51,427 bases of DNA from an uncultured Candidatus Saccharibacteria bacterium (GCA_964591325.1 CAZQAQ010000002.1:9892-61318), one strand, 5' to 3'; shown: positions 807 through 51,427, counted from the stretch's first letter. Notes: generated by a model not told the origin, from the sequence alone. Made by a program: numbers and translations.

Positions 807-810
807 AAAT

Positions 811-2019: not shown

Positions 2020-2070
2020 GAGGTTTTGCACTAGTTATCCACATTGGTATTTAGTTCACATAAACAACTT

Positions 2071-2079
2071 TGCTATAAT
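2071..2079 (+). promoter_or_regulatory. Candidate extended -10 promoter element for the major pilin gene
   Basis: TGcTATAAT at 2071-2079, about 45 nt upstream of the pilin ATG. Only a weak -35 (TTAGTT at 2051-2056). Confidence 0.35.
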
Positions 2080-2124
2080 AGTGTTCATAAGGTATTAAAG
2101 TTAAATTAATAGTAATTAAATAAA

Positions 2125-2649
2125 ATGAAAACATATTTAAATAGAGGTTTCACATTGATCGAATTGCTAGTTGTGATAGCAATCATCGGTATATTGTCAT
2201 CGGTTGTTCTTGCATCACTAAATACAGCAAGAGGAAAGGGATCTGATACAGCAGTAAAGGCAAACCTTGCAAATGTAAGAGCACAGGCAGAGATAATTTA
2301 TGACGGACAGAGTTGTTATTCAAGTGATGCTAGTACAGCATGTGCAGCAGCAGCTGTTAATGCCGTAGCTGCATGTCCAGCTGTCGGAGCAGGTACAGCA
2401 GGAACATTGTTTAGAAATGATACAGTAGCAAATCAGATAGCTTCTGCAAAAGCAGCAGCTGGAGGACTTACAGCTTGTGCTTCTACAGCAAATCAGGCTG
2501 CTTGGGCAATTGCTGTTCAGTTGAAACAAGATCTTAAGACAGCATGGTGTGTAGATAGTACAGGCGCTTCAAAGCAAATAGGTGATGCTTCAGCATATAC
2601 ACAAGCAACATTAACTGCAGATGTAGCTGGAGGAGTTTGTGGTTCATAA
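2125..2649 (+). CDS. pilA: Type IV major pilin (prepilin with class III signal peptide)
   Basis: N-terminus MKTYLNRG/FTLIELLVVIAIIGIL has the G/F cleavage site, Glu5 and a hydrophobic helix. Ala/Thr-rich globular part with several Cys. Strong terminator follows. Confidence 0.85.
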   Translation: MKTYLNRGFTLIELLVVIAIIGILSSVVLASLNTARGKGSDTAVKANLANVRAQAEIIYDGQSCYSSDASTACAAAAVNAVAACPAVGAGTAGTLFRNDTVANQIASAKAAAGGLTACASTANQAAWAIAVQLKQDLKTAWCVDSTGASKQIGDASAYTQATLTADVAGGVCGS

Positions 2650-2668
2650 TTTGATTTAGTTAGTAAAA

Positions 2669-2699
2669 CAAAAAACCACCTTTATGGGTGGTTTTTTTG
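2669..2699. terminator. Bidirectional rho-independent terminator between convergent pilA and the glycosyltransferase gene
   Basis: AAAAAACCACC-TTTATG-GGTGGTTTTTTT: G/C stem flanked by an A-run and a T-run. Confidence 0.7.
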
Positions 2700-2709
2700 T
2701 TTATGCTGC

Positions 2710-4092
2710 CTATTGAAATTTATGCCAGTTGATTAAAAGTCTACCAAACATATTTAACCAATTTCTGCATATTCCCATTCTATTTTCATTTGGGTCTTTT
2801 GTTATATCTGACATAAAGCTATTTGTATCAGGGTTATCTATGGTTTTTGATAATTCCTCCATATCTTTTCTCCATGGCTCAGCTACATTTGTGTTTGTAT
2901 TTGAAAGGTGTTTTGAATAATTACTGATTGATTTTAGTATTTTATAACAATAATCTTGCATTAGTAATTCAAATAATTGTGTGGGTTGGTCTGTAATATC
3001 TATGATCTTTTTTCCTATTTCGTTCATGTTTACCAAAGGGTCAATATTATTTACTTTCATATTTGAAATTATATTTGAAATTACTCGATCCATTTTTGTC
3101 AGCTCATATACACTATTGTTACCAACTGGTCTAGAACCACGAGGTCTTTCATGACCAATAATTAAGGGTGAAAAATACGACACTTTATCAGCAAACGCTT
3201 TCCACCTTAGGGTTCCATATACTAATTCATGGCCTCTACCGTTCGACATAAAAGGAGGTGTAAGTTTTCTATTATCTATACCCATAACTGTACATATACA
3301 CATTATTCCTTGATATATAGTTTCTGACATTGTTGACCACACTATTCTTCGAGTATTTTTTATATTTTTATATTCATCCGAAGTAATATTTCCTAGTTTA
3401 TTGAATACTTGTGGTAATAACATTAGTGGGGTATTTGATTCCATAGGAGAATCACCATATATACCCATAAAAGTATCTATAACAGAACTATCCTTTATGT
3501 ATTCAGGTGTATCTGCTTTAAATATTTCTGAGACTTTTTTGCCTAGTGCTTTTTCATGAATTGATAAAATGTCTATTTCTATAGGTTTAAATAAACTTGG
3601 AACATTTTCATCTTTATTTAAAAACCAAGTTTCAAAAGGGTTTTCTATTGTAAAGTTAGGTCTTGTCTGGTCTGGTGTAAAAAAATTAAATATTACATCG
3701 TAGTCTATTGAGATAATCAATTCACCTTTTGTGTTTGCTAAAAGATAATTTTGGCTCGACCCTACAGTATAAGCAGAGTTTTTGTCTCCACAAAATGCAT
3801 ATATACACACATCCTCTGGTATATTCTTTTCTTTTGATACTTTTATTGCATAGTTTCTCCTATCATCTCTATCAATAAATTCTATTTTTCCTTTATATCT
3901 GTCAACCACACCATTTATTATCTCTCTGTTTTTGGTTGTATACTGTTGTTCACTACAATCATCTATTACCATTATTCTTGGTGTTCGATTGTACTTATTT
4001 AAGTTATCTATAAGTCCATTTAGAGCCGATTTAACTGTTTCATTATCATTATATGCTGGTATACAGACTGTGGTAATTTTTTGATTTTCCAT
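2710..4092 (-). CDS. GT-A fold (family-2-like) glycosyltransferase with a long uncharacterised C-terminal region
   Basis: N-terminus VCIPAYNDNETV...RIMVIDDCSE and a later IDYD (DxD-like) motif. 460 aa. Antisense to and embedded in the pilus locus. Confidence 0.55.
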   Translation of the reverse strand: MENQKITTVCIPAYNDNETVKSALNGLIDNLNKYNRTPRIMVIDDCSEQQYTTKNREIINGVVDRYKGKIEFIDRDDRRNYAIKVSKEKNIPEDVCIYAFCGDKNSAYTVGSSQNYLLANTKGELIISIDYDVIFNFFTPDQTRPNFTIENPFETWFLNKDENVPSLFKPIEIDILSIHEKALGKKVSEIFKADTPEYIKDSSVIDTFMGIYGDSPMESNTPLMLLPQVFNKLGNITSDEYKNIKNTRRIVWSTMSETIYQGIMCICTVMGIDNRKLTPPFMSNGRGHELVYGTLRWKAFADKVSYFSPLIIGHERPRGSRPVGNNSVYELTKMDRVISNIISNMKVNNIDPLVNMNEIGKKIIDITDQPTQLFELLMQDYCYKILKSISNYSKHLSNTNTNVAEPWRKDMEELSKTIDNPDTNSFMSDITKDPNENRMGICRNWLNMFGRLLINWHKFQ

Positions 4093-4162
4093 CTCTATAT
4101 TATATCTATATTTATCCTATTATAAAGATGCTCTTTATCTCTTTATCTGTTAAAATGTATAT

Positions 4163-4627
4163 ATGAAAATATCTTTTAAAAATGGTTTTACTTTGATTGA
4201 GCTTATGGTGGTTATGGCAATTATTGCTATATTAACAGCGGTTGTACTTTCAAATCTTGGTCAGTCAAAGATGAAGGCGCGTGATGGTAAGAGGGTATCT
4301 GATATTGCACAGATACAGCTTGCTCTAGAACTATACTTTGATAGGTGTAATGCTTATCCAGGTAGTTTGGATTTAACAAATTCAAACACTACTTGTGCTA
4401 CAAACTCAAATATAAAATTAGGCAATTATATTACTGCAATTCCTACTGACCCAGTTACAAAGGTTGTTTATGATTATTCAGGCTCTGGTAGTCCAGTTGT
4501 TGATTATGTTTTAAGAACTAAACTTGAAACTAGCAATCAAGCACTAAGTGATGATGTTGATGGTACACAGCTGACACTTGATTGTTCAGACTCTCCAAAC
4601 TTTTACTACTGTGTAAAGCCAAAGTAA
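4163..4627 (+). CDS. Type IV pilin-like protein
   Basis: KNG/FTLIELMVVMAIIAILTAVVL prepilin signal with Glu5. 154 aa. Its stop overlaps the pilD start (TAATG). Confidence 0.8.
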   Translation: MKISFKNGFTLIELMVVMAIIAILTAVVLSNLGQSKMKARDGKRVSDIAQIQLALELYFDRCNAYPGSLDLTNSNTTCATNSNIKLGNYITAIPTDPVTKVVYDYSGSGSPVVDYVLRTKLETSNQALSDDVDGTQLTLDCSDSPNFYYCVKPK

Positions 4628-5421
4628 TGAATGTTTTATTTTTAGTATTTTCTTTTATACTAGGTACTCTTATTGGAAGCTTTTTGAATGTTGTATCTCT
4701 GAGGTTCAATACTGGTATGACACTGGGGGGTAGATCAAAGTGTTTTTCCTGCGGTAAAACACTTACATGGAGTGAACTTATACCGGTATTTAGTTTTTTA
4801 TTTCAAAGTGGTAAATGTAGAAAATGTAAAACAAAGATCTCATGGCAATATCCTATTGTAGAAACAATTTCCGGGATAATTTTTGTCTTAATATTTATAT
4901 ATTTTCCTCCGATTGGGGTATATGAGAGTATAAATACAGTATTTTATTTGGTTATAACATGTATATTACTTGTTATTACTGTTTACGATATAAAACACAA
5001 GATTATCCCAGATTCACTTTCTTATAGTTTTGCTATTATCGCTTTTATTCATATGTTTATATCAAAAGATCTTACTTTTATTATGCCACCAATATATGAA
5101 ATACTTGCTGGACCCATCATTGCTTCACCTTTTGTATTTTTATGGATTATTTCAAAAGGTAAGTGGCTTGGACTTGGAGATGCAAAACTGGTTTTGGGTA
5201 TAGGTTATACACTAGGGCTTTTTGCTTCTATATCTAGTCTTATATTGTCTTTTTGGATAGGTGCTTTTGTTGGAGTTGCTTATATGCTTTTTATTGTAAA
5301 AAAATATAAAAAGGGTTATGAACTTCCTTTTGGTCCGTATCTTATTCTTGGAATGTATATTGTTCTTTTTACAAACATCACAATTATCGATATTCCATCA
5401 CTAATTTCTCTAATAAAATAA
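4627..5421 (+). CDS. pilD: Prepilin peptidase / N-methyltransferase PilD (A24 family)
   Basis: Likely start is the ATG at 4627 (MNVLFLVFSFILGTLIGSFLNVV), not the listed 4582. Cys pairs CFSCG...CRKC. Conserved Asp contexts VYDIKHKIIPD and GLGDAKL. Confidence 0.85.
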   Translation: MNVLFLVFSFILGTLIGSFLNVVSLRFNTGMTLGGRSKCFSCGKTLTWSELIPVFSFLFQSGKCRKCKTKISWQYPIVETISGIIFVLIFIYFPPIGVYESINTVFYLVITCILLVITVYDIKHKIIPDSLSYSFAIIAFIHMFISKDLTFIMPPIYEILAGPIIASPFVFLWIISKGKWLGLGDAKLVLGIGYTLGLFASISSLILSFWIGAFVGVAYMLFIVKKYKKGYELPFGPYLILGMYIVLFTNITIIDIPSLISLIK

Positions 5422-5422
5422 A

Positions 5423-6055
5423 ATGCAATTAAAAAATAAAAATAAAATTAGATCAAGTATAAAAGGTTTTACTCTGGTCGAACTAGTCATATCTATAGGA
5501 ATATTCGCTCTTATGACTGGTGTCTTACTTTCAAAATACGGAAACTTCAATCAAGGTGTAATACTTACAAATCTTGCTTATGATATAGCATTGGCAATAA
5601 GGACTTCTCAGTCTTACGGTATAAATGTAAAAAGTGCTCCAACAAGTAGTGCAAATTATTCAAATAGCTTCCAATACGGGTATGGTATGCACTTTAGTAC
5701 TTTAAATGATACCGAGAAAAAGAAAATGACTTTTTTTGTTGATAAATCTCCAGTAGATAAGGTTTATAACAAGCCAGACGATGACGCTCCTTCATCAGGT
5801 GAGCTTATAACAGAATATTCAGTTAAAAGAGGGCTTAAAATAAATAAACTTTGTGTTGGCGCTGATATATCTACATGTATTGCAGTAACTTCTATGGATG
5901 TTATGTTTCTACGTCCTGATCCAAATGCTATAATTACTGCAAACGGAAATGGGGGAACTACTTATTCTTATGCTTATATAGAGATACTATCTCCAGACGG
6001 TACAAGTAAAAAGATAGAAGTAAGGAAAACAGGTCAAATTGAAATAACAGATTAA
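5423..6055 (+). CDS. Minor pilin / pseudopilin
   Basis: IKG/FTLVELVISIGIFALMTG prepilin signal. 210 aa. Confidence 0.7.
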   Translation: MQLKNKNKIRSSIKGFTLVELVISIGIFALMTGVLLSKYGNFNQGVILTNLAYDIALAIRTSQSYGINVKSAPTSSANYSNSFQYGYGMHFSTLNDTEKKKMTFFVDKSPVDKVYNKPDDDAPSSGELITEYSVKRGLKINKLCVGADISTCIAVTSMDVMFLRPDPNAIITANGNGGTTYSYAYIEILSPDGTSKKIEVRKTGQIEITD

Positions 6056-6056
6056 A

Positions 6057-6698
6057 ATGTTTTTATTTTTAAATAAAAAAAGTACATTCAAAAAAGGTTT
6101 TACTCTAATAGAGATAATAGTGTCTTTGGCTATTTTCAGTATCGTTTCAGTCATAGCTGTTGGTGCACTTCTAAAGATTATTGATGCAAATAAGAAATCT
6201 CAGTCACTTAAAACTGCAATAAATAATGTTAGTTTTGTATTGGAATCTATGTCTCGTGAATTAAGAGTTGGTACAAACTACTATTGTACAAAAACAAATT
6301 TTACTCTTTCTAGTGGTGCTTCTTTACCATCAAGACTTGGATGTTCTGCTGATGTGCAAGATTGGATAATTGCTTTTTATTCTTCAAATACAGCATCAAA
6401 TGGGGCTGGAGGTAATTGTCATCTAGTGTATGCTTATCGATTTGCAAATGGAACAATAGAAAAAGCAGAGCAAACAACATGCTCAGATTCACTTTCAAAT
6501 TCTTCATTTCACCCAGTTATATCTAAAGATGTTAAGTTTTCAAAAGCGAGTTTGGCAGTAAATGTCTCACCGGTAGGCTCTTTTATTGAAAAACAATCAT
6601 ATGCACTCATTCATTTAGTTGGTTATGTTGGTGGAAAAGAAAATGTTCAAACACATTTCGATGTTCAAACAAGCATATCTCAAAGACTTACAGATTAA
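6057..6698 (+). CDS. Minor pilin / pseudopilin
   Basis: KKG/FTLIEIIVSLAIFSIVSV prepilin signal. 213 aa. Confidence 0.7.
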   Translation: MFLFLNKKSTFKKGFTLIEIIVSLAIFSIVSVIAVGALLKIIDANKKSQSLKTAINNVSFVLESMSRELRVGTNYYCTKTNFTLSSGASLPSRLGCSADVQDWIIAFYSSNTASNGAGGNCHLVYAYRFANGTIEKAEQTTCSDSLSNSSFHPVISKDVKFSKASLAVNVSPVGSFIEKQSYALIHLVGYVGGKENVQTHFDVQTSISQRLTD

Positions 6699-6701
6699 TT
6701 T

Positions 6702-7310
6702 ATGAAAAATATTATTTATAAAAATAAAATATTTAGTTTAAAAAGCCTAAAAAATAATTCTGGTTTTACTATTGTAGAGACTCTTGTTGCAATTACTATA
6801 CTTATGATAGCTATTGCAGGACCACTAACAATTGCTCAAAAGGGTCTTACTGCATCTACTTATGCTAGAGATCAAATGATTGCATCATTTCTTGCTCAAG
6901 ATGGGCTAGAGTATGCAAAAAATATAAGAGATAATAATCTTAAAAATAGAGACCCGATCGACTGGCTATATGGACTGACTTCTTGTACATCACATGACCC
7001 TTGTAGTGTAAACACACTCGATGGAGATCCTACGTCAGATACAAGTCCATTAGGTGTAGATACTTGTCCTTCTGGTTACGATACAAGTTCAAACTATGAG
7101 TGTCCTTTGTACAAAAGTAGTACAAATAATGTTGGTTATACTCCTGACTCATCAAATATAGACGAAACACAGTTTAATAGAGTTTTTTATATAATACCTG
7201 ATCAATTGAATTCAAATAAAGCTAGTATGGTGGTAAAAGTATTTTGGTATAACGGAACAGTATCAAATGAGGTCATATATCAAGATGAAATTTATAATAT
7301 AAGACTATGA
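6702..7310 (+). CDS. Minor pilin / pseudopilin
   Basis: NSG/FTIVETLVAITILMIAIAG prepilin signal. 202 aa. Confidence 0.7.
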   Translation: MKNIIYKNKIFSLKSLKNNSGFTIVETLVAITILMIAIAGPLTIAQKGLTASTYARDQMIASFLAQDGLEYAKNIRDNNLKNRDPIDWLYGLTSCTSHDPCSVNTLDGDPTSDTSPLGVDTCPSGYDTSSNYECPLYKSSTNNVGYTPDSSNIDETQFNRVFYIIPDQLNSNKASMVVKVFWYNGTVSNEVIYQDEIYNIRL

Positions 7311-41649: not shown

Positions 41650-42687
41650 GTGAATAATAGTGTTGGACTTAATAATTCGTTTCCGGTGTACAAGAACTCT
41701 TCACTTGTTCTTGAAACAATGTGGGGAAGTAGTCATAGGGCTGAAGAGGGATTTGAATATCCAGTGTATCTTAGGGAAAAGAAGAATATATACTGGCTTT
41801 TCATCTTCCTCTCGGTTGCTACGTTACTAGCTATTCTAGCGAGTGCGGTGATGGCGTTTGTGTACGTAGATGTTTTAGGTGAGACTGTATCAAAAGTTTT
41901 TTTTATCAGTATACTCTTTTATTTTGTTGCGTTTACTTTATGCATCCATGAAGTTTATGTTCTATACAATCTGCTTAAAAAGTATAGAGCTGATCTCGCA
42001 CTTTTAAGTTTGGTGTATGGAAACATACCCTTTGGAGCTAAGGCATACAATGAAATGAGTCGAGAAGAACTCCAATCTACACTCATGAATATCTTTTATT
42101 TTCATGTGATGAAATATCAGTTAGACATGAGTAATGAAGAGAATGAAAAGGAGCTAAATAAAATACTCAGCTTACTTAAAAGGTTTGGAATCATAAACTA
42201 TAATAGTGGAGTGGGGGAGTATATATTTCTCAGGCCGCTCAATCCAGATGAAGATATTTCAATAACTATAAAGGCTTCTTATCTTGAAGGCTCAATACGT
42301 ACTCTCGGTAAAATTTTACCTAATGAAATTTTAGCGATGGTAGGCAATTTTTATTTTATATCAGGTAATCCCGATAGGGTGATCGGATTGGAATTTTATG
42401 AAATTACAAAGCCAGTTAACCTAAAAGATGTGCATATGAGGGGGTTTAAACAGGATGAAGGTACTGCCATGTACTTCACACTTTGTTTATTAAAAAAGAA
42501 TCCTCACATTACAAGTGGTAAGTATGGAAAAGAGTTTTTGATTTGGGCAGCATCAATTTTTGGCACGCGATACTATATCGCCACACTAACTGAAGACGTT
42601 GTTCAAGGAAAGAATCAGGTTAGTGTAAAACCCTACTTTTTGCCAACAGTTAAAAAGGGGGTAAGGGTGGTCATAGTTAGTATATAA
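41650..42687 (+). CDS. Orphan membrane protein (2 TM plus a soluble domain of about 230 aa)
   Basis: GTG start with GAAAGG upstream. Two TM segments at residues 47-105. No motif recognised. A perfect terminator follows. Confidence 0.5.
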   Translation: MNNSVGLNNSFPVYKNSSLVLETMWGSSHRAEEGFEYPVYLREKKNIYWLFIFLSVATLLAILASAVMAFVYVDVLGETVSKVFFISILFYFVAFTLCIHEVYVLYNLLKKYRADLALLSLVYGNIPFGAKAYNEMSREELQSTLMNIFYFHVMKYQLDMSNEENEKELNKILSLLKRFGIINYNSGVGEYIFLRPLNPDEDISITIKASYLEGSIRTLGKILPNEILAMVGNFYFISGNPDRVIGLEFYEITKPVNLKDVHMRGFKQDEGTAMYFTLCLLKKNPHITSGKYGKEFLIWAASIFGTRYYIATLTEDVVQGKNQVSVKPYFLPTVKKGVRVVIVSI

Positions 42688-42692
42688 AACAA

Positions 42693-42727
42693 ACCGGTAT
42701 GCACACTGCATACCGGTAGTTTTTTAT
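42693..42727 (+). terminator. Rho-independent terminator
   Basis: ACCGGTATGCA-CAC-TGCATACCGGT (11-bp perfect stem) followed by AGTTTTTT. Confidence 0.85.
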
Positions 42728-42751: not shown

Positions 42752-43009
42752 TTAATCCATACTTTCATCTCCACCCAAAGACTTAACTATAAGCTTCCTA
42801 ACCTCACCCTTACTTGGCTTTCTTTTACCACGATTAGCCTCAATCTCAATAAGTATATTTTCTATATCTTCAACTTTATAAACCCTATAGTTACTTATAG
42901 GATGTCTGCTCGCTTCGAACTTTCCAGAGTTATCCCAGTTACGTAAAGTGAGGGGTGTTACTCCCAAAATCTTCGCTGCTTGCTTGATTGTTATGTATTT
43001 ATTTTGCAT
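42752..43009 (-). CDS. Excisionase/MerR-type (HTH_17-like) DNA-binding protein
   Basis: YITIKQAAKILGVTPLTLRNWDNSGK...YRVYKVEDI. 85 aa. Confidence 0.7.
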   Translation of the reverse strand: MQNKYITIKQAAKILGVTPLTLRNWDNSGKFEASRHPISNYRVYKVEDIENILIEIEANRGKRKPSKGEVRKLIVKSLGGDESMD

Positions 43010-44018
43010 ATATAAACTTTAATAAACCTTAATAAAGATTATATCAAATAGTATAAGATATTAATAATGAGTTATACACATTATCAAGGTTTTATAATAT
43101 AAAATAAAACCAGCAAAATAATTTAAATTACGAGGTTTATAGTAATTTGTTCATGATAAGATTGTCGAACAATTCTTGTATATATTCAAAATATTTTATT
43201 TTAACTATGTCTCTATTTGAGCTTAGGGAATAGTTTAATACTTCGCTCAAATGTCTGCATTTAATAAAAGATCGAGTTATATTTCCACATGTTTTATTTT
43301 GTTTATTCATAAAAGCGCTAATTGTACATATATAACTTCGTATTACTTGATTTAATCAGTTTAAATTGCTGGCACGTGCTTCTGTATACTTGTAGGGGCC
43401 TCAGTTTATATTCCTTTTAATAAACTAAATACATATTTTATATCACTATAAATATAAGTATCACTGCCATATATCTATATTAGCTAGGTATCAATAATGT
43501 ATTGAAACGCTTTAAATACAGACTTACATTATCTATACAATTTTATATGTAATTTTCCTTTTTATTATACGGCTAATATTCGTTATCTCGTGAACCCGAG
43601 ATGATATTTTAAGCCATTATTTTGTATATTGATTAAATGAGCGAGAAGGCTATATAGAGGTATATTTTGGGATATGAATTCACGTAATTTTGAGTAATTC
43701 TTATGTATTATGTTTATATGTTAATACTCAATTTAAGCTTATACCGATCTACATACTTACTATATTTAACTATATCTGTAATACCTAGAGCTTTTGATTT
43801 GCGTGTATGTGAATTTTATCGAGCTAAATCTACTTTTAATGTATGGATAGTTAAATTTTCTATTTGTATGATTGAAATCTAGTCGCGTCGCGTCATTTAT
43901 TTGATATATAAATATTTGTTAATTAAAATTTTGTTTTTTCTAATAGAAAGTATCAGACTTATCCACATTTTTATTGCAACAAATGACCCGAGATGGGTTA
44001 TAATTGTAATAAATAAAT

Positions 44019-45026
44019 ATGAAAGATAGTCTTATTTTTGAACATAAAAAATACATCTCGGCTAAACGAGCTTCTGAGCTTGTTGGTTACACTCGCGACT
44101 ATGTTGGTCAACTATCTAGAGAAGGAAAGATTGATAGCAGAATGTTTGGTCGTTCATGGTTCATTTCTGAAGAATCAATTTTGAGTCACAAAGCTCAAAA
44201 TGCTCTTAACAATAAAAAGAATGCAGAATTACTTTTGGCAAATAAGAAAAATGCTAAGACATCACAAATAGTTGAAACAACATCAAACCCAGTTATAGTA
44301 GTTTCAAATCCAATTCTTCCAGTTGTCAAATCAGTTCCATCACCACTAATTGATAAGAATATTTTTTCTGGAATTTCTGGAACTGTTTCAAACAATATTG
44401 TTAATCCAGTAAAGTCCGCAATAAATAATTCTCAAATTATTTCAGGTATGCCTCAACTTTCAGTTGCAGGTAGTTCTGTAAAATTCGGTCAGACAATAAA
44501 TTCAAAGTCTGGATCAATTGCGAATACTTCAAAACTTTATACAAAAGAAAATATAGCAATGGCATTTATGTCACTAGTTATAGTTTTTAATATTTTCTTT
44601 ATAAAGGATAATTTTATAAATAATTCAAATAAAAATGTTGCTGGTGTTTCAGAAGCATTGAGTATTGAATCAATAAAACATTTTGCTTCAACACTAGCAA
44701 GAGGATTTGGAATCATATCAGAAAGAATTGCAATGAGACTTAATCTAGGTGAAAAGTCTTATTCAGTTGTAAATTCGAAACCTGTTGTTGCAAAGAATGA
44801 TGACGCAAATGATGTTGGTTATGCTGGTATAGCAGTTCTACCATCAACAAATTCACTAGAAAAAGATGAGATTATAAAACAACATATAAAAGATACATTC
44901 TCTGATGAGGTGAATGTAAGACCGGACCCTTCAGGTAGTGCTGGGGTCATAACCCCGGTATTCAAGAAAGCAACGAAAGATAGTTATATATATGTTTTGG
45001 TTCCGACGGTTGAAGAGAAGAAGTAG
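44019..45026 (+). CDS. Membrane-anchored protein with an N-terminal excisionase/MerR-type HTH
   Basis: KYISAKRASELVGYTRDYVGQLSREGKIDSRMFGRSWFISEESI, then a Ser/Asn/Val-rich linker, one TM (IAMAFMSLVIVFNIFFI) and a C-terminal domain of about 140 aa. Confidence 0.6.
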   Translation: MKDSLIFEHKKYISAKRASELVGYTRDYVGQLSREGKIDSRMFGRSWFISEESILSHKAQNALNNKKNAELLLANKKNAKTSQIVETTSNPVIVVSNPILPVVKSVPSPLIDKNIFSGISGTVSNNIVNPVKSAINNSQIISGMPQLSVAGSSVKFGQTINSKSGSIANTSKLYTKENIAMAFMSLVIVFNIFFIKDNFINNSNKNVAGVSEALSIESIKHFASTLARGFGIISERIAMRLNLGEKSYSVVNSKPVVAKNDDANDVGYAGIAVLPSTNSLEKDEIIKQHIKDTFSDEVNVRPDPSGSAGVITPVFKKATKDSYIYVLVPTVEEKK

Positions 45027-45056
45027 AAGTAGAGGTTTGAGAGATTAAATAATAAA

Positions 45057-46256
45057 ATGAAAAATAACAATAGAGTACAAAATAATAAAGTAAATACAAC
45101 TATATCTAAAATAGTAGGTATTATTGTTTTGGTTTCTCTATTTACACCTATATATAGTGTGTTCGGTGAAGTTATGACAAGTGGAAATTACAGACTACAA
45201 AGTGATAGTTTAAATTTCTCTGGAAATAGATCAGGTTCATATTCATATAATATAGAAGACACACAAGGTGAAATAGGTACTGGTGAACAAGGAAGCAATA
45301 GCAATATAGTAAGAGCTGGATACCAACAAGCAGATACTGCTTCTGCAGGTTCTGCTTCAGAAAATGTATATAGCGGAGGAAGAGGTTCAGGTTCAGATAT
45401 AAATAATTCAGCAATAAATGTTATTGAATTTATTGCTATACCTCTTTCAAAATCAATATCATTAAACTGGTCATATCCAGCAGGTGTAGGTATAGAGTCT
45501 GTAAAAATAGTTCGTTCAGATAAATTCTATCCAGTAGATATGAATGATGGTGAAGTTATATTTGAAGGAGTTGGAACTGGTGCTATAGACAATGATGTTG
45601 TACCAGGTAAGACATATTATTATGCACTATTTACAAAGAATTCTTTGGGCGAATACTCATCTGGAGTTTTGGCAAAAGCTATTATATTAAAAGATGGTGA
45701 AAAGCCTTCTGATATAGAACTTGATCCTTTTGCAAATATCCCAAATGCTTTGGCGGTAGATAAATTGATACAAGGGTTAACACTTCTAGATTTTGATTTT
45801 ATACAAGATGGTAAATACATAGATCATACAGTAGGTATAGTTCCAATAGATGGAAAAAAGAATTTAACAATAAGTCTAGACTATAAAAAGGTTCCAGAAG
45901 TTCTAAAGACAATTGCTATCACTCTCGTAGATCCAGATGATAGTACAAAAATATTTACATTCTTGTTGAGAGTAAATAAAGATAAGACTGCTTATGAAGC
46001 TACAATAGCTCCATTAAAGAAGAGTGGAAATTACAAGATAAATATCATCATACTTGATTATAAGAATCAGGGATTAAAGAGAATAAGTGGTGATATCAAG
46101 GCCGTTGTTTTTGAAGGATTCCTAAAGGCAATTTCAAATATAGATATAAGAGAACATAAGAAATTATCACTAGGAATACTAATATCTATTATTGCTATCT
46201 TTATGATCCTTATAATAAAGATAAAGAATAAATTACAAGAAAAATATGAAATATAA
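45057..46256 (+). CDS. Bitopic surface protein with an FN3-like domain
   Basis: N-terminal anchor/signal and a SGNYRLQSDSLNFSG...YSYNIEDTQGEIGTGE...RAGYQQ motif. FN3-like stretch LNWSYP...VKIVRS...GKTYYYALFTKN. C-terminal TM. The 3' end overlaps the giant ORF start by 11 nt. Confidence 0.6.
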   Translation: MKNNNRVQNNKVNTTISKIVGIIVLVSLFTPIYSVFGEVMTSGNYRLQSDSLNFSGNRSGSYSYNIEDTQGEIGTGEQGSNSNIVRAGYQQADTASAGSASENVYSGGRGSGSDINNSAINVIEFIAIPLSKSISLNWSYPAGVGIESVKIVRSDKFYPVDMNDGEVIFEGVGTGAIDNDVVPGKTYYYALFTKNSLGEYSSGVLAKAIILKDGEKPSDIELDPFANIPNALAVDKLIQGLTLLDFDFIQDGKYIDHTVGIVPIDGKKNLTISLDYKKVPEVLKTIAITLVDPDDSTKIFTFLLRVNKDKTAYEATIAPLKKSGNYKINIIILDYKNQGLKRISGDIKAVVFEGFLKAISNIDIREHKKLSLGILISIIAIFMILIIKIKNKLQEKYEI

Positions 46257-49200
46257 TATTCAATACAAAGGAATATTGATTTTCATAGCAGTTATGACTG
46301 CAGTATTTGGACTATATGGTTTTAATTTCAATACTGCAAAAGCGGTTATAAATAAACAAATAAACTATCAAGGTAAGTTATTTACAGGAACAAATACTCC
46401 AGTTACTGACGGTGGATACAATGTAAAGTACAGACTATATACAACAGCAACTGGTGGAAGCCCAATATGGACAGAAACACTTTGTTATTCATCTGATAAT
46501 GGAAATACTTGTGATGGTACAGGTACAGACAATCGTGTTTCAGTATCAAATGGTTTGTTCAGTACAATGCTAGGAAGTGTAACTTCACTTGATGCAGTTA
46601 ATTTCAATCAAACACTTTACCTTGGAGTAGAGATCGGGGGAAATAGTGCTTCATCAGCTACTTGGGACGGAGAAATGACACCTAGAAAGAAAATAGGAGC
46701 AGTTCCAGCTGCCTTCGAAGCAGATAAACTAGATGGACTATCAAGTGAACAGTTTATAAGATCTGATGCTGACAATGCCACAACTTCATCATCAACTTTC
46801 TTGAATGTAATTCAAAATGGAGCAGGAAAGGTTGCAGAATTTATAGGACAAAGTTCAGCAAGTGTACTATCTATACTTTCTGATGGAAAGGTTGGTATCG
46901 GAACAACAACTCCTACTGATGTGCTTTCAGTAAATGGTCCTATATACCTTGCAAATACATCTCCAGTATCAACAGCAAATCGTATATATGCAAATGGCGG
47001 TAGTTTGTACTATGCTGGTAATCTAATCGGAGGTGCTACAGTTGGAAATTGGACAAGCAATGGTACAGATGTTTGGAGACCAACTGGAAATGTCGGTATT
47101 GGTACTTCATCACCTGGGCAACTATTAGAAGTCTATAGTAATTCAACAAATCCGGTTATAAAAATAAGTAACGGTCTTTCTGGTAGTTTTCCAGTAATAC
47201 AGCTTGCTGACACAAGAACAAATGGACATACATGGAATATTGAATCCGGTAGGACATTAGGGCAACTTAGCTTCAGAGATGGAACTGCTGCTGTAGAAAG
47301 GATGACTATAAATGGTGATGGTAATGTTGGTATCGGTACAACATCCCCATACGCAAAACTTTCTGTAACATCAACATCAGTTGCTTCTACAACTCTAGCT
47401 CTACGTTCTGTATCATCACAGACCGCTAATCTACTGGATCTATTTAATGGATCAGGATCTTTAGTGAGTGTAATAAATACTTCAGGATTTATTGGTTTGG
47501 GTTCAACTACTCCAACAGGTATGCTAACTATCACAAATACAGGAACAACATATCCTTCATTTGTAGTTGAGGATAGTGCATCACCCGATGCATCTCCTTT
47601 CTTGATTGATAACGCTGGATTGGTTGGTATCGGTACTTCAACTCCAGATACACAACTTACAATAGCAGGTGGTTCAGCAGTAGACAAAGATGCAATATCT
47701 ATTTCTGGTTTCAATGGTAGTAACACAGAAAAAACTATGATAAGGATGATGAACGGAAATAGAAACTACACCTGGGGTTTAAGATTTGGTGCGGCAAGAG
47801 ATGTTTCTACAACTGGAGGTGCAACTGCAGGTGATGCTTTTGTTGTAAATACAAAAACAAATGGTGGTACAGAAACAGAAAGATTTAGAATTAGTAAAGA
47901 TGGGGATGTGGGAATTGGTACAACAGCACCACTGGCTCGTCTAGATGTTGTTGGAGCAAGTAGTGGAACAAGACCAATATTCCAAGTTTCAAGTCTTTCA
48001 GGTTTTTCTACAACTACAAGATTTGTAGTTGATGGTAGTGGAAATGTGGGAATTGGAACAAGTTCACCCGCTACTAAGCTTGAGGTTTCTACTGGAACAA
48101 ACCAAGCCACTCTTATTGGTGACCAGACCTCTTACGCAGCAGCAGGTCTTGGTTTGAGTAATGTTTCAAGCGGTATCGGATTTCGTAGATCTACCGATGG
48201 GATTGTTTCTACTGGAATGTTCAATTATAACGATACCGGAGGTGTTCCTGATTTGGGATTTAGAGCTCGCGGAGGATTCGGATTCTTTAATGGGGCAAGT
48301 GGTACACAGAATATGACATTAACCTCAGCGGGCAACGTTGGTATTGGATCAACAACACCGCTTGCTCAGCTATCAGTCGGAGGTAATTCAACTTCAAATA
48401 CTCTATTTGCTCTAGACGCTCTATCAGGACAAACACAACCAATACTAGATGTAAAACTAGCAAGTACATCGAAGTTTATGGTTGATAGTAGTGGAAATGT
48501 GGGAATTGGCACAACTACTCCAACAGCTCTACTATCAATCACTACACCTAATGCCGGAACAGGACAAGCACTACAGTCATGGTCATTTGGTGGTTCAACT
48601 GCAAACAGCACAAACTATAATCTAGCTATGAAGCAGGTAGTGACTTCAGGTGTTGTTGCTTGGGTATTTGATCAGAAGAATAACGGTACATCATATTCAA
48701 ATGTACTTGCATTCGATAGAGGTAATATCGGTATCGGCACCACCTCTCCAGGTCAGAAACTCTCAGTAGCAGGGGATATCCTCGGTAATGCATTTATCGG
48801 TTCATACTTCACCGCAACTTCAACTACACAAGCCTCCACATTCCCATATGCTTCTACGACCGGATTCACTTCGAGCGGCAATACATTCCTTGCAACAGTA
48901 GGCGGAAGTGTAAGTATAGGTACAACCACTTCAAGTCTCGCAACTCTTAACATCCAGGCCTCTGGAGGAGCGTCCATCAATCTTAACAACTCTTCAACTG
49001 CTATTACTACGGGAAATATCCTCGGTAATATCGATGCATACTCTCTTGATACTTCAACAGGCATGGCAGGTCTCTTCGGTCGCATCCGCTTTGCCGCAAC
49101 GACACTTTGGGATGGTACACAAGACGATGGAGCTGATATTATCTTCTCCACAAGGACTGTTGCGGATGCAACATCAACTCCGCTTGATCGTATGGTCATT

Positions 49201-51427
49201 ACCGCCGCTGGAAACGTCGGTATAGGTACAACAACTCCAGAGTCATTATTCAATATAAGAGGTTCATTACCAACATTTACAATTACAGATACATCAAATA
49301 CATCTGGGTCTGTTGGAGATTCGCTTTCAAATATTAATTTTGTAGGTGAAGATACATCATCTGGTCTTAATGGAACTGTCAGAGCTTCAATAGGTACATA
49401 TGCAGCAGATGTATTCAGAGCACAAGTGGGTCTTAATTTTATGACAAGGAATGGTGCCACACTTTATAATCGAATGGTTATAGAGCCAAATCTTGGAAAT
49501 GTTGGTATAGGTACAACTACTCCAGGTCAGAAACTTGAAGTTATGGGTATAGGTCGTTTCGATGGTACAAACACATTTTCTATAGGTAGTGATACAAATT
49601 ACAAGAGAATAGACACTGCTGGTACTGGTTCAGAAATATTCCGTTTTTTAAGTTCTGGTAATAATCTTGCTGGTTTACGAGCGGGAAGTGCTATTATTGG
49701 TTTGACTGCACCTTTTACAACTGCAACTGCACCAACGTCAGGTCTTTTGGTTCAAGGAAATGTGGGAGTTGGAACAACATCTCCGTACTCTCAACTTTCT
49801 GTTAGTGGACTTTCTGCTGCTACAACTCTCTTTGCTCTAGATGCTCTATCAGGTCAAACAGCTCCAATACTAGATGTTAAACTGGCAAGCACAACAAAGT
49901 TTGTAGTTGATGCTAGTGGAAATGTTGGGGTTGGTGTTACTACACCCACAGCAAACCTAGTAGTTAGTAAATCTTATGCAGAGCCTGCAGCAGGTATTGC
50001 TTCTACTACAGTTGCGGTTTTTTCTAATAATAATACAGCAAATGCTTCATCATCAATTTCTATACTATCTAGAAGTTCAGCAATCTCTAGTTTAAATTTC
50101 GGAACTCAATTAGGAGAAAGATCTGGATTTATAGATTACGGTATTGCTGCTGGTTCATATCAAGGATTAGCATTTGGTACTTTAGGTACTGAAAGAATGA
50201 GGATTGATGGAAATGGATATGTTGGTATTGGTACTACAACTCCAATAGGAAATCTTGATATAGCAGCTTCAGCTCCAGTGCTTAGACTAAGTGGTACAAA
50301 TACATCTATTTCAGCTGGTGGAACATATGGTGATATCGAATACTATACATCTGATACAACTGCGCAGGGAGTAATGGCAAGAATCAGAGCTAAGGGAAAT
50401 GATAGTAATGTTGGTGGCGATTCAGATTTATCATTCTGGACATTTACAGGTGGAGGATCATTAACAGAGAAGATGAGACTTATGAGTACAGGAAGATTAG
50501 GGATTGGTACAACTTCACCAGATAGACTTCTGACAGTTAGCGGCGCCACATCTGCTACAACTACAATAGAAACTACGACTGCAAATACAACTCCAGGACT
50601 AGAATTAAGATCAAATGTAACAGGTAATAACGTAAATATAGGTAATATATCATTTATAAATAGTTCAAACGGAAATAGTACATTAGCAAATATTACAGGA
50701 TTTCAGGGTGCTTCTGCTTCTTTGGGTGCGTTGATATTCAATACTAGAGCAGCATCTAATTACGGAGAAAGAATGAGAATTGATGTAAATGGAAACGTTG
50801 CAATAAGTACTTCTACAGCTAGTGAAAAGTTATCAATTCTTTCAGCAGACAATGTTCAAGCAACAAATATATTTGCAGTAAGAGCTAACAACCTTTCACA
50901 GGGTATAGGTATTGGTTATGATAGTATACGTCAATTGGGTGGTAGCGGTTCTCTTCTTTTGGATTCTAATAATTCTGGCCGTCTTCTTCTTCAAACAAAT
51001 GGAGGTACAGGTAATGTTGGTATAGCTACCTCAACTCCATGGGCTACATTATCTATAACAAACACAACTACAAATCCTTCATTCGTTGTAGAAGACTCAA
51101 CTTCACCTGATACCACTCCTTTCATAATTGATGCTAGTGGAAATGTTGGGGTTGGTATTTCAACACCTCTATATAAACTTGATGTGGATGGTTCTATGAG
51201 ACTTGGTGCTTCAAGTGGTTCAGTACAACCGATACTTGGAAGAAATACTAGTGGAGGTTTGAGTATTGATAGTACTGGTGCTGTTTCATCATCAAACAAT
51301 CTACTAACCGTAGCGAATAATGGGGGTACGGCACTGGTAACAGTATTAGGAGGAGGTAATGTTGGTATTGGAACAACATCACCAGATATATATTCACTTG
51401 GTCTAACAAAACATTTAACTTTGTCAA
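46246..51427 (+). CDS. Giant repeat-rich surface protein (tail-fibre-like), 3' end beyond the window
   Basis: I translated every codon from the ATG at 46246 to base 51427: 1727 sense codons and no stop. This ORF is absent from the supplied track. Signal peptide ILIFIAVMTAVFGLYGFNFNTAKA. The N-terminal module INYQGKL...GYNVKYRLYTTATGGSPIWTE...NGLFSTMLGS...PRKKIGAVPAAFEADKLDG is followed by at least 20 G-N-V-G-I-G-T-T-x-P motifs. Confidence 0.85.
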   Translation, partial: MKYNIQYKGILIFIAVMTAVFGLYGFNFNTAKAVINKQINYQGKLFTGTNTPVTDGGYNVKYRLYTTATGGSPIWTETLCYSSDNGNTCDGTGTDNRVSVSNGLFSTMLGSVTSLDAVNFNQTLYLGVEIGGNSASSATWDGEMTPRKKIGAVPAAFEADKLDGLSSEQFIRSDADNATTSSSTFLNVIQNGAGKVAEFIGQSSASVLSILSDGKVGIGTTTPTDVLSVNGPIYLANTSPVSTANRIYANGGSLYYAGNLIGGATVGNWTSNGTDVWRPTGNVGIGTSSPGQLLEVYSNSTNPVIKISNGLSGSFPVIQLADTRTNGHTWNIESGRTLGQLSFRDGTAAVERMTINGDGNVGIGTTSPYAKLSVTSTSVASTTLALRSVSSQTANLLDLFNGSGSLVSVINTSGFIGLGSTTPTGMLTITNTGTTYPSFVVEDSASPDASPFLIDNAGLVGIGTSTPDTQLTIAGGSAVDKDAISISGFNGSNTEKTMIRMMNGNRNYTWGLRFGAARDVSTTGGATAGDAFVVNTKTNGGTETERFRISKDGDVGIGTTAPLARLDVVGASSGTRPIFQVSSLSGFSTTTRFVVDGSGNVGIGTSSPATKLEVSTGTNQATLIGDQTSYAAAGLGLSNVSSGIGFRRSTDGIVSTGMFNYNDTGGVPDLGFRARGGFGFFNGASGTQNMTLTSAGNVGIGSTTPLAQLSVGGNSTSNTLFALDALSGQTQPILDVKLASTSKFMVDSSGNVGIGTTTPTALLSITTPNAGTGQALQSWSFGGSTANSTNYNLAMKQVVTSGVVAWVFDQKNNGTSYSNVLAFDRGNIGIGTTSPGQKLSVAGDILGNAFIGSYFTATSTTQASTFPYASTTGFTSSGNTFLATVGGSVSIGTTTSSLATLNIQASGGASINLNNSSTAITTGNILGNIDAYSLDTSTGMAGLFGRIRFAATTLWDGTQDDGADIIFSTRTVADATSTPLDRMVITAAGNVGIGTTTPESLFNIRGSLPTFTITDTSNTSGSVGDSLSNINFVGEDTSSGLNGTVRASIGTYAADVFRAQVGLNFMTRNGATLYNRMVIEPNLGNVGIGTTTPGQKLEVMGIGRFDGTNTFSIGSDTNYKRIDTAGTGSEIFRFLSSGNNLAGLRAGSAIIGLTAPFTTATAPTSGLLVQGNVGVGTTSPYSQLSVSGLSAATTLFALDALSGQTAPILDVKLASTTKFVVDASGNVGVGVTTPTANLVVSKSYAEPAAGIASTTVAVFSNNNTANASSSISILSRSSAISSLNFGTQLGERSGFIDYGIAAGSYQGLAFGTLGTERMRIDGNGYVGIGTTTPIGNLDIAASAPVLRLSGTNTSISAGGTYGDIEYYTSDTTAQGVMARIRAKGNDSNVGGDSDLSFWTFTGGGSLTEKMRLMSTGRLGIGTTSPDRLLTVSGATSATTTIETTTANTTPGLELRSNVTGNNVNIGNISFINSSNGNSTLANITGFQGASASLGALIFNTRAASNYGERMRIDVNGNVAISTSTASEKLSILSADNVQATNIFAVRANNLSQGIGIGYDSIRQLGGSGSLLLDSNNSGRLLLQTNGGTGNVGIATSTPWATLSITNTTTNPSFVVEDSTSPDTTPFIIDASGNVGVGISTPLYKLDVDGSMRLGASSGSVQPILGRNTSGGLSIDSTGAVSSSNNLLTVANNGGTALVTVLGGGNVGIGTTSPDIYSLGLTKHLTLS
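46888..51385 (+). repeat. Array of about 21 coding repeats of the motif G-(N/D)-V-G-(I/V)-G-T-(T/S)-x-P, spaced irregularly at about 150-300 nt
   Basis: Motif codons (gga aat gtt ggt att ggt aca aca .. cca and variants) start near 46888, 47086, 47321, 47487, 47617, 47901, 48040, 48331, 48491, 48721, 48904, 49211, 49494, 49757, 49917, 50215, 50491, 50791, 51011, 51139 and 51356. Confidence 0.85.

Follow-up and report, generated by a model that had tools for sequence, protein, structure and literature searches.

A conserved promoter and a membrane-tethered helix-turn-helix protein head a probable host-attachment fibre operon of Patescibacteria

What do three consecutive genes of an uncultured bacterium make, and do their products work together? 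The genes lie in a stretch of 51,427 nucleotides (nt) labelled as Candidatus Saccharibacteria (GCA_964591325.1, CAZQAQ010000002.1:9892-61318; hereafter the window). The first, ORF1 (open reading frame 1; 44019-45026, 335 amino acids (aa)), encodes a predicted membrane-tethered helix-turn-helix (HTH) protein, and the second, ORF2 (45057-46256, 399 aa), a predicted anchored protein with fibronectin type III (FN3)-like domains. The third, ORF3, is a giant gene whose ATG at 46246 lies within the last codons of ORF2 (sequence ATGAAATATAA) and which remains open for 1727 codons up to the window end at 51427. ORF1 and ORF2 are separated by 30 nt, ORF2 and ORF3 overlap by 11 nt, and the 1009 nt upstream of ORF1 (43010-44018, 25% GC) are non-coding; an earlier reading of this DNA (the original prediction) had given the same coordinates, spacings of 30 and -11 nt and about 1 kb of upstream non-coding DNA, all of which we confirm. 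No terminator-like sites were found between the three genes. Our analysis indicates that the window carries a reduced, or short, form of a surface-fibre operon conserved across Paceibacteria-type Patescibacteria, and the operon probably builds and controls a host-attachment fibre. The coordinates of its parts are collected in Table 1.

The first part of the answer comes from gene order. Relatives of ORF2 number in the hundreds, all of them from Patescibacteria and all without annotation. Three independent look-ups of distant relatives returned an identical neighbourhood: genes for an AI-2E transporter, Obg and GatB, a small MerR-family gene in opposite orientation, an ORF1 counterpart of 320-340 aa that shows a faint HTH signal, zero to three extra genes, the ORF2 relative and a giant gene. 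A scan from ORF2 with one genome per species yielded 80 loci, which were mapped with profiles; those with informative labels were assigned to Taylor-, Nomura- or Zambryskibacteria, Paceibacteria or Parcubacteria. All 76 loci that include upstream DNA have an ORF1 relative as the first gene of the cluster, and a giant-protein relative adjoins ORF2 or is fused to it in frame in at least 79 of the 84 loci with room for one, so that the co-occurrence across related genomes proposed beforehand as a test of the original prediction was indeed found. In 58 loci a homologue of the ORF3 N-terminus lies directly beside ORF2, with gaps of -56 to +103 nt, in at least 21 further loci the two genes are fused in frame, and only three loci with room lack the giant-gene homologue. 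The small MerR homologue keeps its position and orientation in 69 loci. Order and tight spacing are thus preserved over 80 species despite 40-60% protein divergence. Many loci come from one bulk submission labelled 'Saccharibacteria', a label that is unconfirmed, and the named relatives of these loci are Paceibacteria-type. One complete operon of Patescibacteria type was found in a metagenome-assembled genome labelled 'Candidatus Nanoarchaeia archaeon' (L079, DATGWK010000115.1), where the archaeal label is probably a binning or labelling error.

The in-frame fusions are informative in their construction. The transmembrane (TM) helix of ORF2 is followed by a short basic loop, by the fibre's own signal peptide with its AxA site and then by (A/V)INxQINYQGKL; such a protein could thread out-in-out across the membrane with signal-peptidase cleavage still possible, a topologically consistent arrangement. 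The recurrence of these fusions is Rosetta-stone-type evidence that both products work together or co-assemble. Patescibacterial genomes are compact, with short gaps and overlaps common, and the flanking Obg and GatB genes are likewise syntenic without an obvious functional link, all of which would fit three functionally unlinked genes brought together by chance or genome compaction. We give that explanation next to no weight: it is opposed by the gene order and tight spacing conserved across the 80 species, by the recurrent ORF2-giant fusions, by an ORF1 family found only with its own ectodomain architecture, and by a dedicated conserved promoter before ORF1 in a unit with no internal terminators. 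Chance juxtaposition is excluded, and it is near certain that the three genes form a conserved functional module. The operon is kept in dozens of species of ultra-small Patescibacteria, at the same place and behind the same promoter.

The nature of the module is indicated by its giant product. ORF3 opens with a canonical signal peptide (AKA↓VINKQINYQGKL, the arrow marking the cleavage site), is rich in glycine, threonine and serine, and contains at least 16 'GxVGIGT' repeats at irregular spacings of 43 to 265 aa. A Pfam search of the 1727-aa part within the window gave no match, Peptidase_S74 included, and the gene reaches the window edge before the region concerned; among six complete orthologues (1519-2497 aa), four contain Peptidase_S74 above the Pfam cut-off. 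The presence in orthologues of this intramolecular chaperone of tail fibres and endosialidases suggests that ORF3 is probably trimeric. Like phage tail fibres and endosialidases, then, the family has Peptidase_S74 in its orthologues, and ORF3 is likewise long, repetitive and rich in glycine, serine and threonine. Unlike phage fibres, its gene is chromosomal and in a housekeeping context, its product would be exported by the Sec pathway, and the S74 domain of the orthologues lies 300-370 aa before the C-terminus. ORF3 is most likely a surface adhesin or host-contact fibre. The mature N-terminus of its relatives is conserved as INxQINYQGKL; we considered the INYQGKL segment as a donor strand and set the idea aside, since tail-fibre-like proteins of other phyla commonly have this motif as an N-terminal domain. 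Proteins with Laminin_G_3 domains are often encoded downstream of the giant gene.

How such a fibre might be held at the surface is suggested by ORF2. This protein had been described as bitopic, with TM helices at both ends, a topology that we do not retain: by its sequence the N-terminal hydrophobic stretch looks like a cleavable signal peptide and not a TM helix, with a signal-peptidase-like site at SVFG↓EVMTSG in the window, AYA↓Q or AQ↓VM in relatives and a family consensus of ...A-x-A/Q↓VM(S/T)S. Around the C-terminal helix lysine and arginine average 1.55 before and 4.12 after, an enrichment that points to an ectoprotein anchored as type I, its short tail in the cytoplasm. The AlphaFold2 (AF2) model contains two beta-sandwich domains with a predicted local distance difference test score (pLDDT) above 90, a C-terminal helix at aa 364-397, and an unstructured region at aa 31-115 (pLDDT about 30). 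Foldseek matched the model to tandem FN3 pairs and to the Vibrio cholerae matrix protein RbmA with E about 1e-6, the RbmA matches including E 4e-6. Pfam gave no match for the window ORF2; further support for the FN3 assignment comes from a weak match to FN3 in PDB sequence searches, which returned nothing further for the PamT-like protein or profile introduced below, and from PF00041 in many homologues. The claim of an FN3-like anchored protein therefore holds for the fold and the anchor, with two such domains in place of the one that had been proposed. We think it fairly probable that ORF2 is the membrane anchor of the fibre.

Between the signal peptide and the first FN3-like domain ORF2 carries a strand-rich motif (SGNY...AGYQQ, aa 38-95) that the original prediction had singled out as conserved. 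It is real and conserved, in only about a third of the family, and is homologous to the N-terminus of a separate PamT-like protein encoded in the other loci; members without it have one or two further FN3 domains in its place. The NCBIfam model NF058579, 'CPR-type pilus protein PamT' (CPR, candidate phyla radiation), matches the window ORF2 with 20.5 bits (E 2.6e-4) over aa 21-94 only and is matched by 11 of 31 family members (best E 1.2e-10), all of these matches being far under the equivalog cut-off of 240 bits. The sequences thus indicate a homology between ORF2 and PamT that is real but partial.

The source of this motif becomes apparent when the loci are compared. About 55 of the 80 are of a long form, in which ORF1 is followed by an optional 225-aa PamT-like paralogue, a 310-370-aa protein, a separate PamT-like protein of 245-290 aa immediately upstream of ORF2, ORF2 itself and the giant gene. 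The separate PamT-like proteins match NF058579 with up to 51 bits (E 9e-14), and the N-terminus of the long-form PamT-like protein is 39% identical to that of ORF2 (E 1e-18). The 310-370-aa protein, with a signal peptide, two beta (Ig) domains and a C-terminal TM helix, is a WxLIP homologue (profile E 8e-9 against PDB 9i25, WxLIP1 of Enterococcus faecium), and 20 of 26 members of its family contain Pfam WxLIP_PGBD (PF06030). In about 24 loci including the window, the short form, the extra genes are gone and the PamT-like signal peptide and motif form the beginning of ORF2. These sequences are most simply read as the outcome of a deletion that joined the 5' end of a PamT-like gene to the ORF2 core; one relative (P0023) combines the motif, FN3 and the ORF2 core. 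That the short form is intact in many species marks it as a working variant and not debris. Long-form loci (L003, L005, L027-L086; for example L003 7522-9992) encode one or two PamT-like secreted proteins with a conserved cysteine pair, and through the WxLIP (DUF916-type) homologue between ORF1 and ORF2 the occurrence of WxLIP-type proteins extends beyond Firmicutes to Patescibacteria. When a profile of 30 PamT-like proteins was searched, the best 120 matches listed were only close 'hypothetical' orthologues.

These relatives connect the locus to two known surface systems. The Pam pilus of CPR bacteria has a PamT tip subunit and a PamR anchor, for which a strand logic has been proposed (bioRxiv 10.64898/2026.03.03.709456). 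ORF2 shares with the pilus of Candidatus Mycosynbacter amalyticus an N-terminal signal peptide and a 55-aa motif matching the PamT tip subunit (NF058579) and, when compared with the published description of PamR (WP_260763282.1), it likewise has an N-terminal extension or strand, two FN3 domains and a C-terminal TM helix; both systems are specific to CPR and have a tail-fibre-like gene nearby. They differ in that Pam has been described from Saccharimonadia and Microgenomatia and this locus lies in Paceibacteria-type genomes, that the Pam description includes no HTH-TM protein corresponding to ORF1, and that Pam is a polymer of small pilins, whereas the dominant product here is that of a giant monomeric fibre gene. 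No NCBIfam matches to the PamA, PamB and PamE pilins or the PamC and PamD chaperones were obtained at 44019-51427 or in the scanned locus proteins (library models for these are unconfirmed), and NCBIfam searches of the ORF2 and WxLIP-like families gave no Pam match beyond PamT; the WxLIP-like protein of the relatives may be an analogue of PamC and PamD. In the WxL/WxLIP clusters of Firmicutes, where insertion of a beta-strand has been proposed to stabilise and anchor surface proteins without covalent bonds (PMC10599100), a WxLIP protein stands beside small secreted beta-rich proteins, as its homologue does in our long-form relatives. The window lacks a WxLIP gene, in contrast to those clusters, and they in turn lack a membrane-tethered HTH protein and a giant tail-fibre-like gene. 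A search for Pfam WxL in the 30 PamT-like proteins, at E up to 1, gave no match.

The locus might accordingly be read as a strand-complementation system of Pam or WxL type, with ORF2 as the PamR-like terminator and anchor of a short pilus made of PamT-like subunits, a WxLIP-like membrane chaperone, the giant gene as co-transcribed cargo and the window as a decaying remnant. The one or two PamT-like genes and WxLIP1 homologue of about 55 of the 80 loci would be explained at once, as would the fit of ORF2 to the published PamR and the conserved tail-fibre-like gene that the preprint reports near pam operons (bioRxiv 10.64898/2026.03.03.709456). We nevertheless regard this as decidedly unlikely. 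Neither a major pilin of PamA, PamB or PamE type nor any further Pam model was detected, the PamT matches all fall well short of their cut-off, no WxL domains were detected in the PamT-like proteins, and the short form occurs in about 24 species with ORF1, ORF2 and the giant gene intact, which is not sporadic decay; the fusions of ORF2 to the giant gene, found in both forms, tie ORF2 to the giant protein. What is new here is a fibre operon, found throughout Paceibacteria and assembled from pieces already known, that combines a defined promoter with a membrane-tethered HTH protein of a new type. Homologues are all 'hypothetical' in the source databases, and our literature search found no description of the triad, the ORF1 family or the ORF1 promoter; the earlier remark that this was not recognised as a described system therefore stands for the triad, and needs qualifying for its parts, in that the ORF2 motif matches PamT and the relatives lead to the Pam pilus and to WxL clusters.

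We next turn to the protein that heads the fibre operon. The AF2 model of ORF1 aa 1-60 has a pLDDT of about 95 and the order b-b-a-a-b-b-a of a winged HTH, and its best Foldseek match is the excisionase Xis of mycobacteriophage Pukovnik (TM-score 0.70, root-mean-square deviation 1.6 Å), followed by BldC, TraN (31% identity), RacA and RdfS, with TM-scores near 0.7 when normalised to the target. From the model we confidently assign the domain to the Xis/BldC/MerR-type winged HTH group. A precomputed match to PF12728 exists for four family members (P0128, P0129, P0140 and P0143). The best-conserved part of ORF1 is aa 1-56, with ten invariant residues in the family alignment, and 11 of 73 family members have a tandem second copy of the HTH, reminiscent of TraN. 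Its likeness to the neighbouring 85-aa MerR protein is no more than marginal. The HTH is followed by one helix to aa 81, and the dimerisation coiled coil and effector region of MerR are not present. None of Xis, BldC, TraN, RacA and RdfS, whose fold ORF1 aa 1-60 shares, is tethered to the membrane or has an ectodomain, in contrast to ORF1. In three loci without the divergent small MerR gene (L037, 4660-5493; L040, 4334-5263; L083, 4776-5453) a second HTH-plus-TM paralogue of ORF1 was observed, which lies upstream of ORF1 on the same strand and is without the conserved C-terminal domain.

Beyond the HTH, a linker rich in serine, asparagine, isoleucine and valine, variable in length and sequence, leads to the TM helix, and a further variable stretch separates the helix from a sharply conserved C-terminal block of about 65 aa (GIAVxPS...FSDEVxVxPDxSGTxGVITPVFKK...YxYVLVP). 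Across 69 members the mean number of lysines and arginines is 2.68 on the N-terminal flank of the helix and 1.09 on the C-terminal flank, with N>C in 59 members and N<C in 2, which by the positive-inside rule places the HTH in the cytoplasm and the C-terminal block outside; the proposal of a single TM helix with a cytoplasmic HTH is in this way upheld. The ectodomain, put at about 140 aa by the original prediction, has to be reduced, since conservation outside the membrane is limited to the last 65-70 aa. When 1.84 billion representative proteins were searched with this block, it turned up in 698 clusters, and in all matches listed the block is C-terminal, mostly in proteins of 250-430 aa; by its sequence distribution it appears to be an orphan domain specific to the ORF1 family.

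This arrangement is that of ToxR, CadC and TfoS (PMC7888679, PMC11856585), which also consist of an N-terminal cytoplasmic DNA-binding domain, a linker, a single TM helix and an extracytoplasmic C-terminal domain, and ORF1 stands at the head of the locus that it would control, as in ToxR-type systems. The DNA-binding domain differs, being an OmpR/PhoB winged helix in the ToxR group and Xis/BldC/MerR-type in ORF1, which has a 65-aa orphan ectodomain; a Pfam search of ORF1 gave no match to Trans_reg_C. The idea of a ToxR-like layout with a different DNA-binding fold is thus borne out by the model. By analogy, conserved cis elements 20-60 nt upstream of its start codon would be the basis on which ORF1 might regulate its promoter, and the case for ORF1 as a transmembrane one-component regulator of the operon that it heads seems to us evenly balanced.

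The cis elements in question are well defined. The pattern TT[AG]TCC[AC]CA occurs on the plus strand in 65 of the 69 spacers between the small MerR gene and ORF1, with 80 matches in all; elsewhere in 1.2 Mb there are 36 matches, against about 34 expected by chance from base composition. Besides the form in the window (TTATCCACA), the variants TTATCCCCA and TTGTCCACA are found across loci, and in 49 of 61 loci the distance from its start to a TATAAT-like hexamer is 39-41 nt. In most loci no -35 can be recognised, which hints at a promoter that depends on an activator. The sequence CCGAGAT is found in 19 loci, 28-32 nt downstream of where the box starts, and in L068 and L053 it belongs to the palindrome ATCTCG-N6-CGAGAT. 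In the long-form clade 6-8 nt separate the -10 from the ATG, implying a leaderless ORF1 mRNA; in the window clade 14 nt do so, no Shine-Dalgarno sequence is present and the mRNA would be near-leaderless. The 19-nt spacer with dyad in the window promoter may correspond to the 19-20 bp spacer with dyad operator of MerR-type targets, and the candidates for its binder are the small MerR protein and ORF1. In four loci without the small MerR gene, in three of which the second HTH-TM paralogue replaces it, the box is kept, and the small MerR protein is therefore not required for the box. Box variants and tandem-HTH forms of ORF1 were compared by eye only, a comparison confounded by relatedness.

The remainder of the 1-kb spacer is less constrained. 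It is the longest of the 69 loci (median about 350 nt), and its length is a lineage peculiarity. Against the nearest relative (L007) it is mostly diverged or deleted, and what is kept is the MerR-proximal 100 nt, a block at about 43575-43665 and the last 65 nt before ORF1. The middle block holds a perfect ATCTCG-N6-CGAGAT palindrome (43585-43602) and is conserved while the surrounding DNA has diverged; the same palindrome lies within the ORF1 promoter of L068 and L053, and from its sequence the distal copy may be a second or decoy operator or the remnant of a duplicated promoter. Three candidate features of the spacer were rejected. A generic sigma-70 scan gave no more matches than shuffled sequence did, and its best match (43901-43929), which is not conserved in L007, gave way to the conserved promoter at 43959-44004; spacer ORFs such as 43137-43310 (minus strand) and 43703-43882 (plus strand) lie in stretches deleted or diverged in L007; and an origin of replication is contradicted by the lack of a dnaA gene, box clusters and a skew switch. 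Rfam gave no match in the spacer when 42.6-44.1 kb was searched, and in the whole window it matched only four tRNAs, all outside the spacer.

The box is not confined to the fibre operon. Just one further exact copy occurs in the window (2035-2043). It precedes by 39 nt a TATAAT (2074-2079), and next comes a type IV pilin gene (2125-2649), itself downstream of PilC. Among 15 related pilin loci from metagenomes, 9-10 have the box or a one-mismatch variant before the pilin gene, again at this spacing to a TATAAT; loci with this layout are L087, L091-L093, L095, L096 and L099-L101. The shared sequence and spacing lead us to read the box as a control element common to at least two kinds of surface-appendage genes, and suggest that surface appendages are under a shared regulon.

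Taken together, these observations can be assembled into a model on whose side our judgement comes down slightly, namely a fibre operon in which ORF2 is the holder and ORF1 a transmembrane regulator at its own promoter. ORF3 would be a Sec-exported, giant tail-fibre-like protein that makes contact with the host. ORF2 would form a stalk on the outer face with its two FN3-like domains and be anchored by its C-terminal helix, and its strand-rich segment, borrowed from a PamT-like pilin gene, would dock on a partner by beta-strand complementation and so hold the fibre at the surface; that this segment is unstructured when modelled alone is as expected of one that becomes ordered on a partner, in parallel to what has been proposed for PamR and for WxLIP/WxL. 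ORF1 would present its cytoplasmic winged HTH on a long flexible tether, with one TM helix and the ectodomain outside, and would read an outside cue, such as the status of fibre and anchor or contact with a host, and act at the operon's own promoter. The operon would be driven by a conserved activator-type promoter consisting of the box TTATCC(A/C)CA, about 31 nt and TATAAT, usually with no good -35, and the divergent small MerR protein would be a second local regulator, its likely site being CCGAGAT or ATCTCG-N6-CGAGAT in the 19-nt spacer. As a by-product, ORF1 may keep the locus at the membrane during synthesis and export of the giant protein; a membrane-bound regulator that keeps its gene at the membrane (transertion) has been argued for the type III secretion system 2 (T3SS2) in Vibrio (PMC9977878). 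In this model the binding of DNA by ORF1, the pairing of proteins with sites, the contact between ORF2 and the fibre and the nature of the cue are all inferred.

Several of our results weigh against this model. Sequence models score the ORF1 HTH below their cut-offs (HTH_17, PF12728, 16.0 against 27 bits; excisionase, TIGR01764, 18.6 against 28.8), and its Foldseek E-values are weak (0.02 or higher), as a consequence of the small size of the 60-aa domain. HTH domains of this fold also serve non-regulatory roles, for example in RacA and TraN. A PDB profile search with the C-terminal block found no relative, and the AF2 model of the ectodomain is poor (pLDDT below 55) and allowed no fold to be assigned, which leaves the sensor role of ORF1 a guess. 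Most relatives have the extra PamT-like and WxLIP-like genes, and ORF2 may primarily anchor their products and not the giant protein. The box, finally, is the DnaA-box consensus and also precedes pilin genes, and its binder may be DnaA or another global factor and not ORF1.

The last of these points leads to a different account of ORF1, as an assembly or positioning factor whose HTH binds DNA non-specifically, or binds a protein, and tethers the apparatus or the nucleoid, the box being read by DnaA or another global regulator with joint control of the pilin and fibre genes. HTH domains can serve in this way: RodZ uses its HTH to bind MreB, and RacA, a DNA anchor, and TraN, of a secretion system, are among the closest folds. 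The identity of the box with the DnaA-box 9-mer counts in its favour, as does the fact that TTGTCCACA-type variants are known DnaA-box forms (we take TTGTCCACA itself to be the actinobacterial DnaA box), and so do the equal spacing of the box in type IV pilin promoters, its persistence without the small MerR gene, and an ectodomain that is always C-terminal and family-restricted, as expected for a dedicated structural contact. On the other hand, no part of ORF1 is better conserved than the HTH, whose recognition helix contains invariant residues. In every locus the HTH is accompanied by a nearly invariant box, 50-60 nt ahead of the ORF1 start codon, and the tandem-HTH variants look like binders of specific sequences. 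Neither a dnaA gene nor a cluster of boxes was found in any locus examined; the loci are accordingly not origins, an observation that is neutral on binding of DnaA, and it is possible that DnaA acts as a transcription factor at the box. Overall, we consider a positioning role for ORF1 unlikely, though not negligibly so.

Returning to ORF1 as a regulator, a bolder version of the model can be formulated, in which ORF1 would represent a new class of transmembrane regulator that reads the box at both the fibre and the type IV pilin promoters, couples an outside cue to both organelles and tethers the giant gene for coupled transcription, translation and export. We offer this version tentatively, as a speculation that is more apt to fail than to hold.

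The surroundings of the operon are those of an ordinary chromosome, with a type IV pilus cluster, LigA, GatA, GatB, Obg, RNase J, GroEL and tRNAs. The pilus cluster occupies 45-7310, with PilC at 811-2019 and the pilin gene mentioned above; another pilin gene follows at 4163-4627, and 5423-7310 holds three genes in succession whose products have prepilin-type N-termini. On the opposite strand, 2710-4092 encodes a glycosyltransferase. Between GatB and the small MerR gene is an ORF of 345 aa with two predicted TM helices (41650-42687, plus strand), which among 87 loci is present only in the window and L007, has weak matches only (CoA_binding_3 and the retron St85 effector family) and is probably a lineage-specific insertion. 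A terminator-like hairpin ends both the upstream unit and the small MerR gene.

Table 1. Features of the fibre operon and its upstream region (window coordinates)
Feature	Position	Strand	Remarks
Bidirectional terminator-like hairpin	42693..42717	both	11-pair stem with 6 GC pairs; T-runs on both strands
Small MerR-family HTH gene	42752..43009	-	85 aa; divergent from ORF1; Pfam MerR 38.8 bits (cut-off 28.2)
Perfect palindrome ATCTCG-tgaacc-CGAGAT (ATCTCGtgaaccCGAGAT)	43585..43602	+	about 400 nt upstream of ORF1
Promoter box TTATCCACA	43959..43967	+	40 nt before -10; identical to DnaA-box consensus
-35-like TTGCAA	43974-43979	+	followed by 19-nt spacer
Palindrome ACCCgagatGGGT in 19-nt spacer	43986-43998	+	CCGAGAT at 43988-43994
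-10 TATAAT	43999-44004	+	14 nt before ORF1 ATG
ORF1	44019..45026	+	HTH aa 1-60 (44019-44198); long helix to aa 81; S/N-rich linker
ORF1 predicted TM helix	44547-44603	+	aa 177-195; only hydrophobic segment; no N-terminal signal peptide
ORF1 conserved orphan C-terminal domain	44811-45023	+	aa 265-335; from family alignment
ORF2	45057..46256	+	signal peptide about aa 1-36; PamT-like strand-rich motif aa 38-95 (45168-45341); S/G linker
ORF2 FN3-like domain 1	45417-45686	+	aa 121-210; AF2, Foldseek
ORF2 FN3-like domain 2	45789-46106	+	aa 245-350; AF2, Foldseek
ORF2 predicted C-terminal TM helix	46167-46223	+	aa 371-389; followed by basic cytoplasmic tail
ORF3, 5' part of giant secreted fibre gene	46246..51427	+	1727 codons; still open at window end

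Patescibacteria account for much of bacterial diversity, and their life is thought to be spent in attachment to host cells; how they attach, and how attachment is regulated with few regulators, is largely obscure. The locus described here is a concrete and widely conserved candidate for attachment, with a giant tail-fibre-like protein and a putative dedicated anchor repeatedly fused to it, and within one operon family it brings together three systems so far described apart, namely Pam pili, WxL/WxLIP clusters and phage-type fibres. It is headed by a protein family of at least 698 sequence clusters that has had no annotation, behind a sharply delimited promoter, the key element of which also stands before type IV pilin genes, and this raises the prospect that fibre and pilus are co-regulated. 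It also raises the questions of which protein, ORF1, the small MerR protein or DnaA, reads the box, and of whether strand-rich segments of PamT type anchor surface fibres. If ORF1 does read the box at both promoters, a single membrane sensor would couple an outside cue to both attachment organelles of these bacteria.

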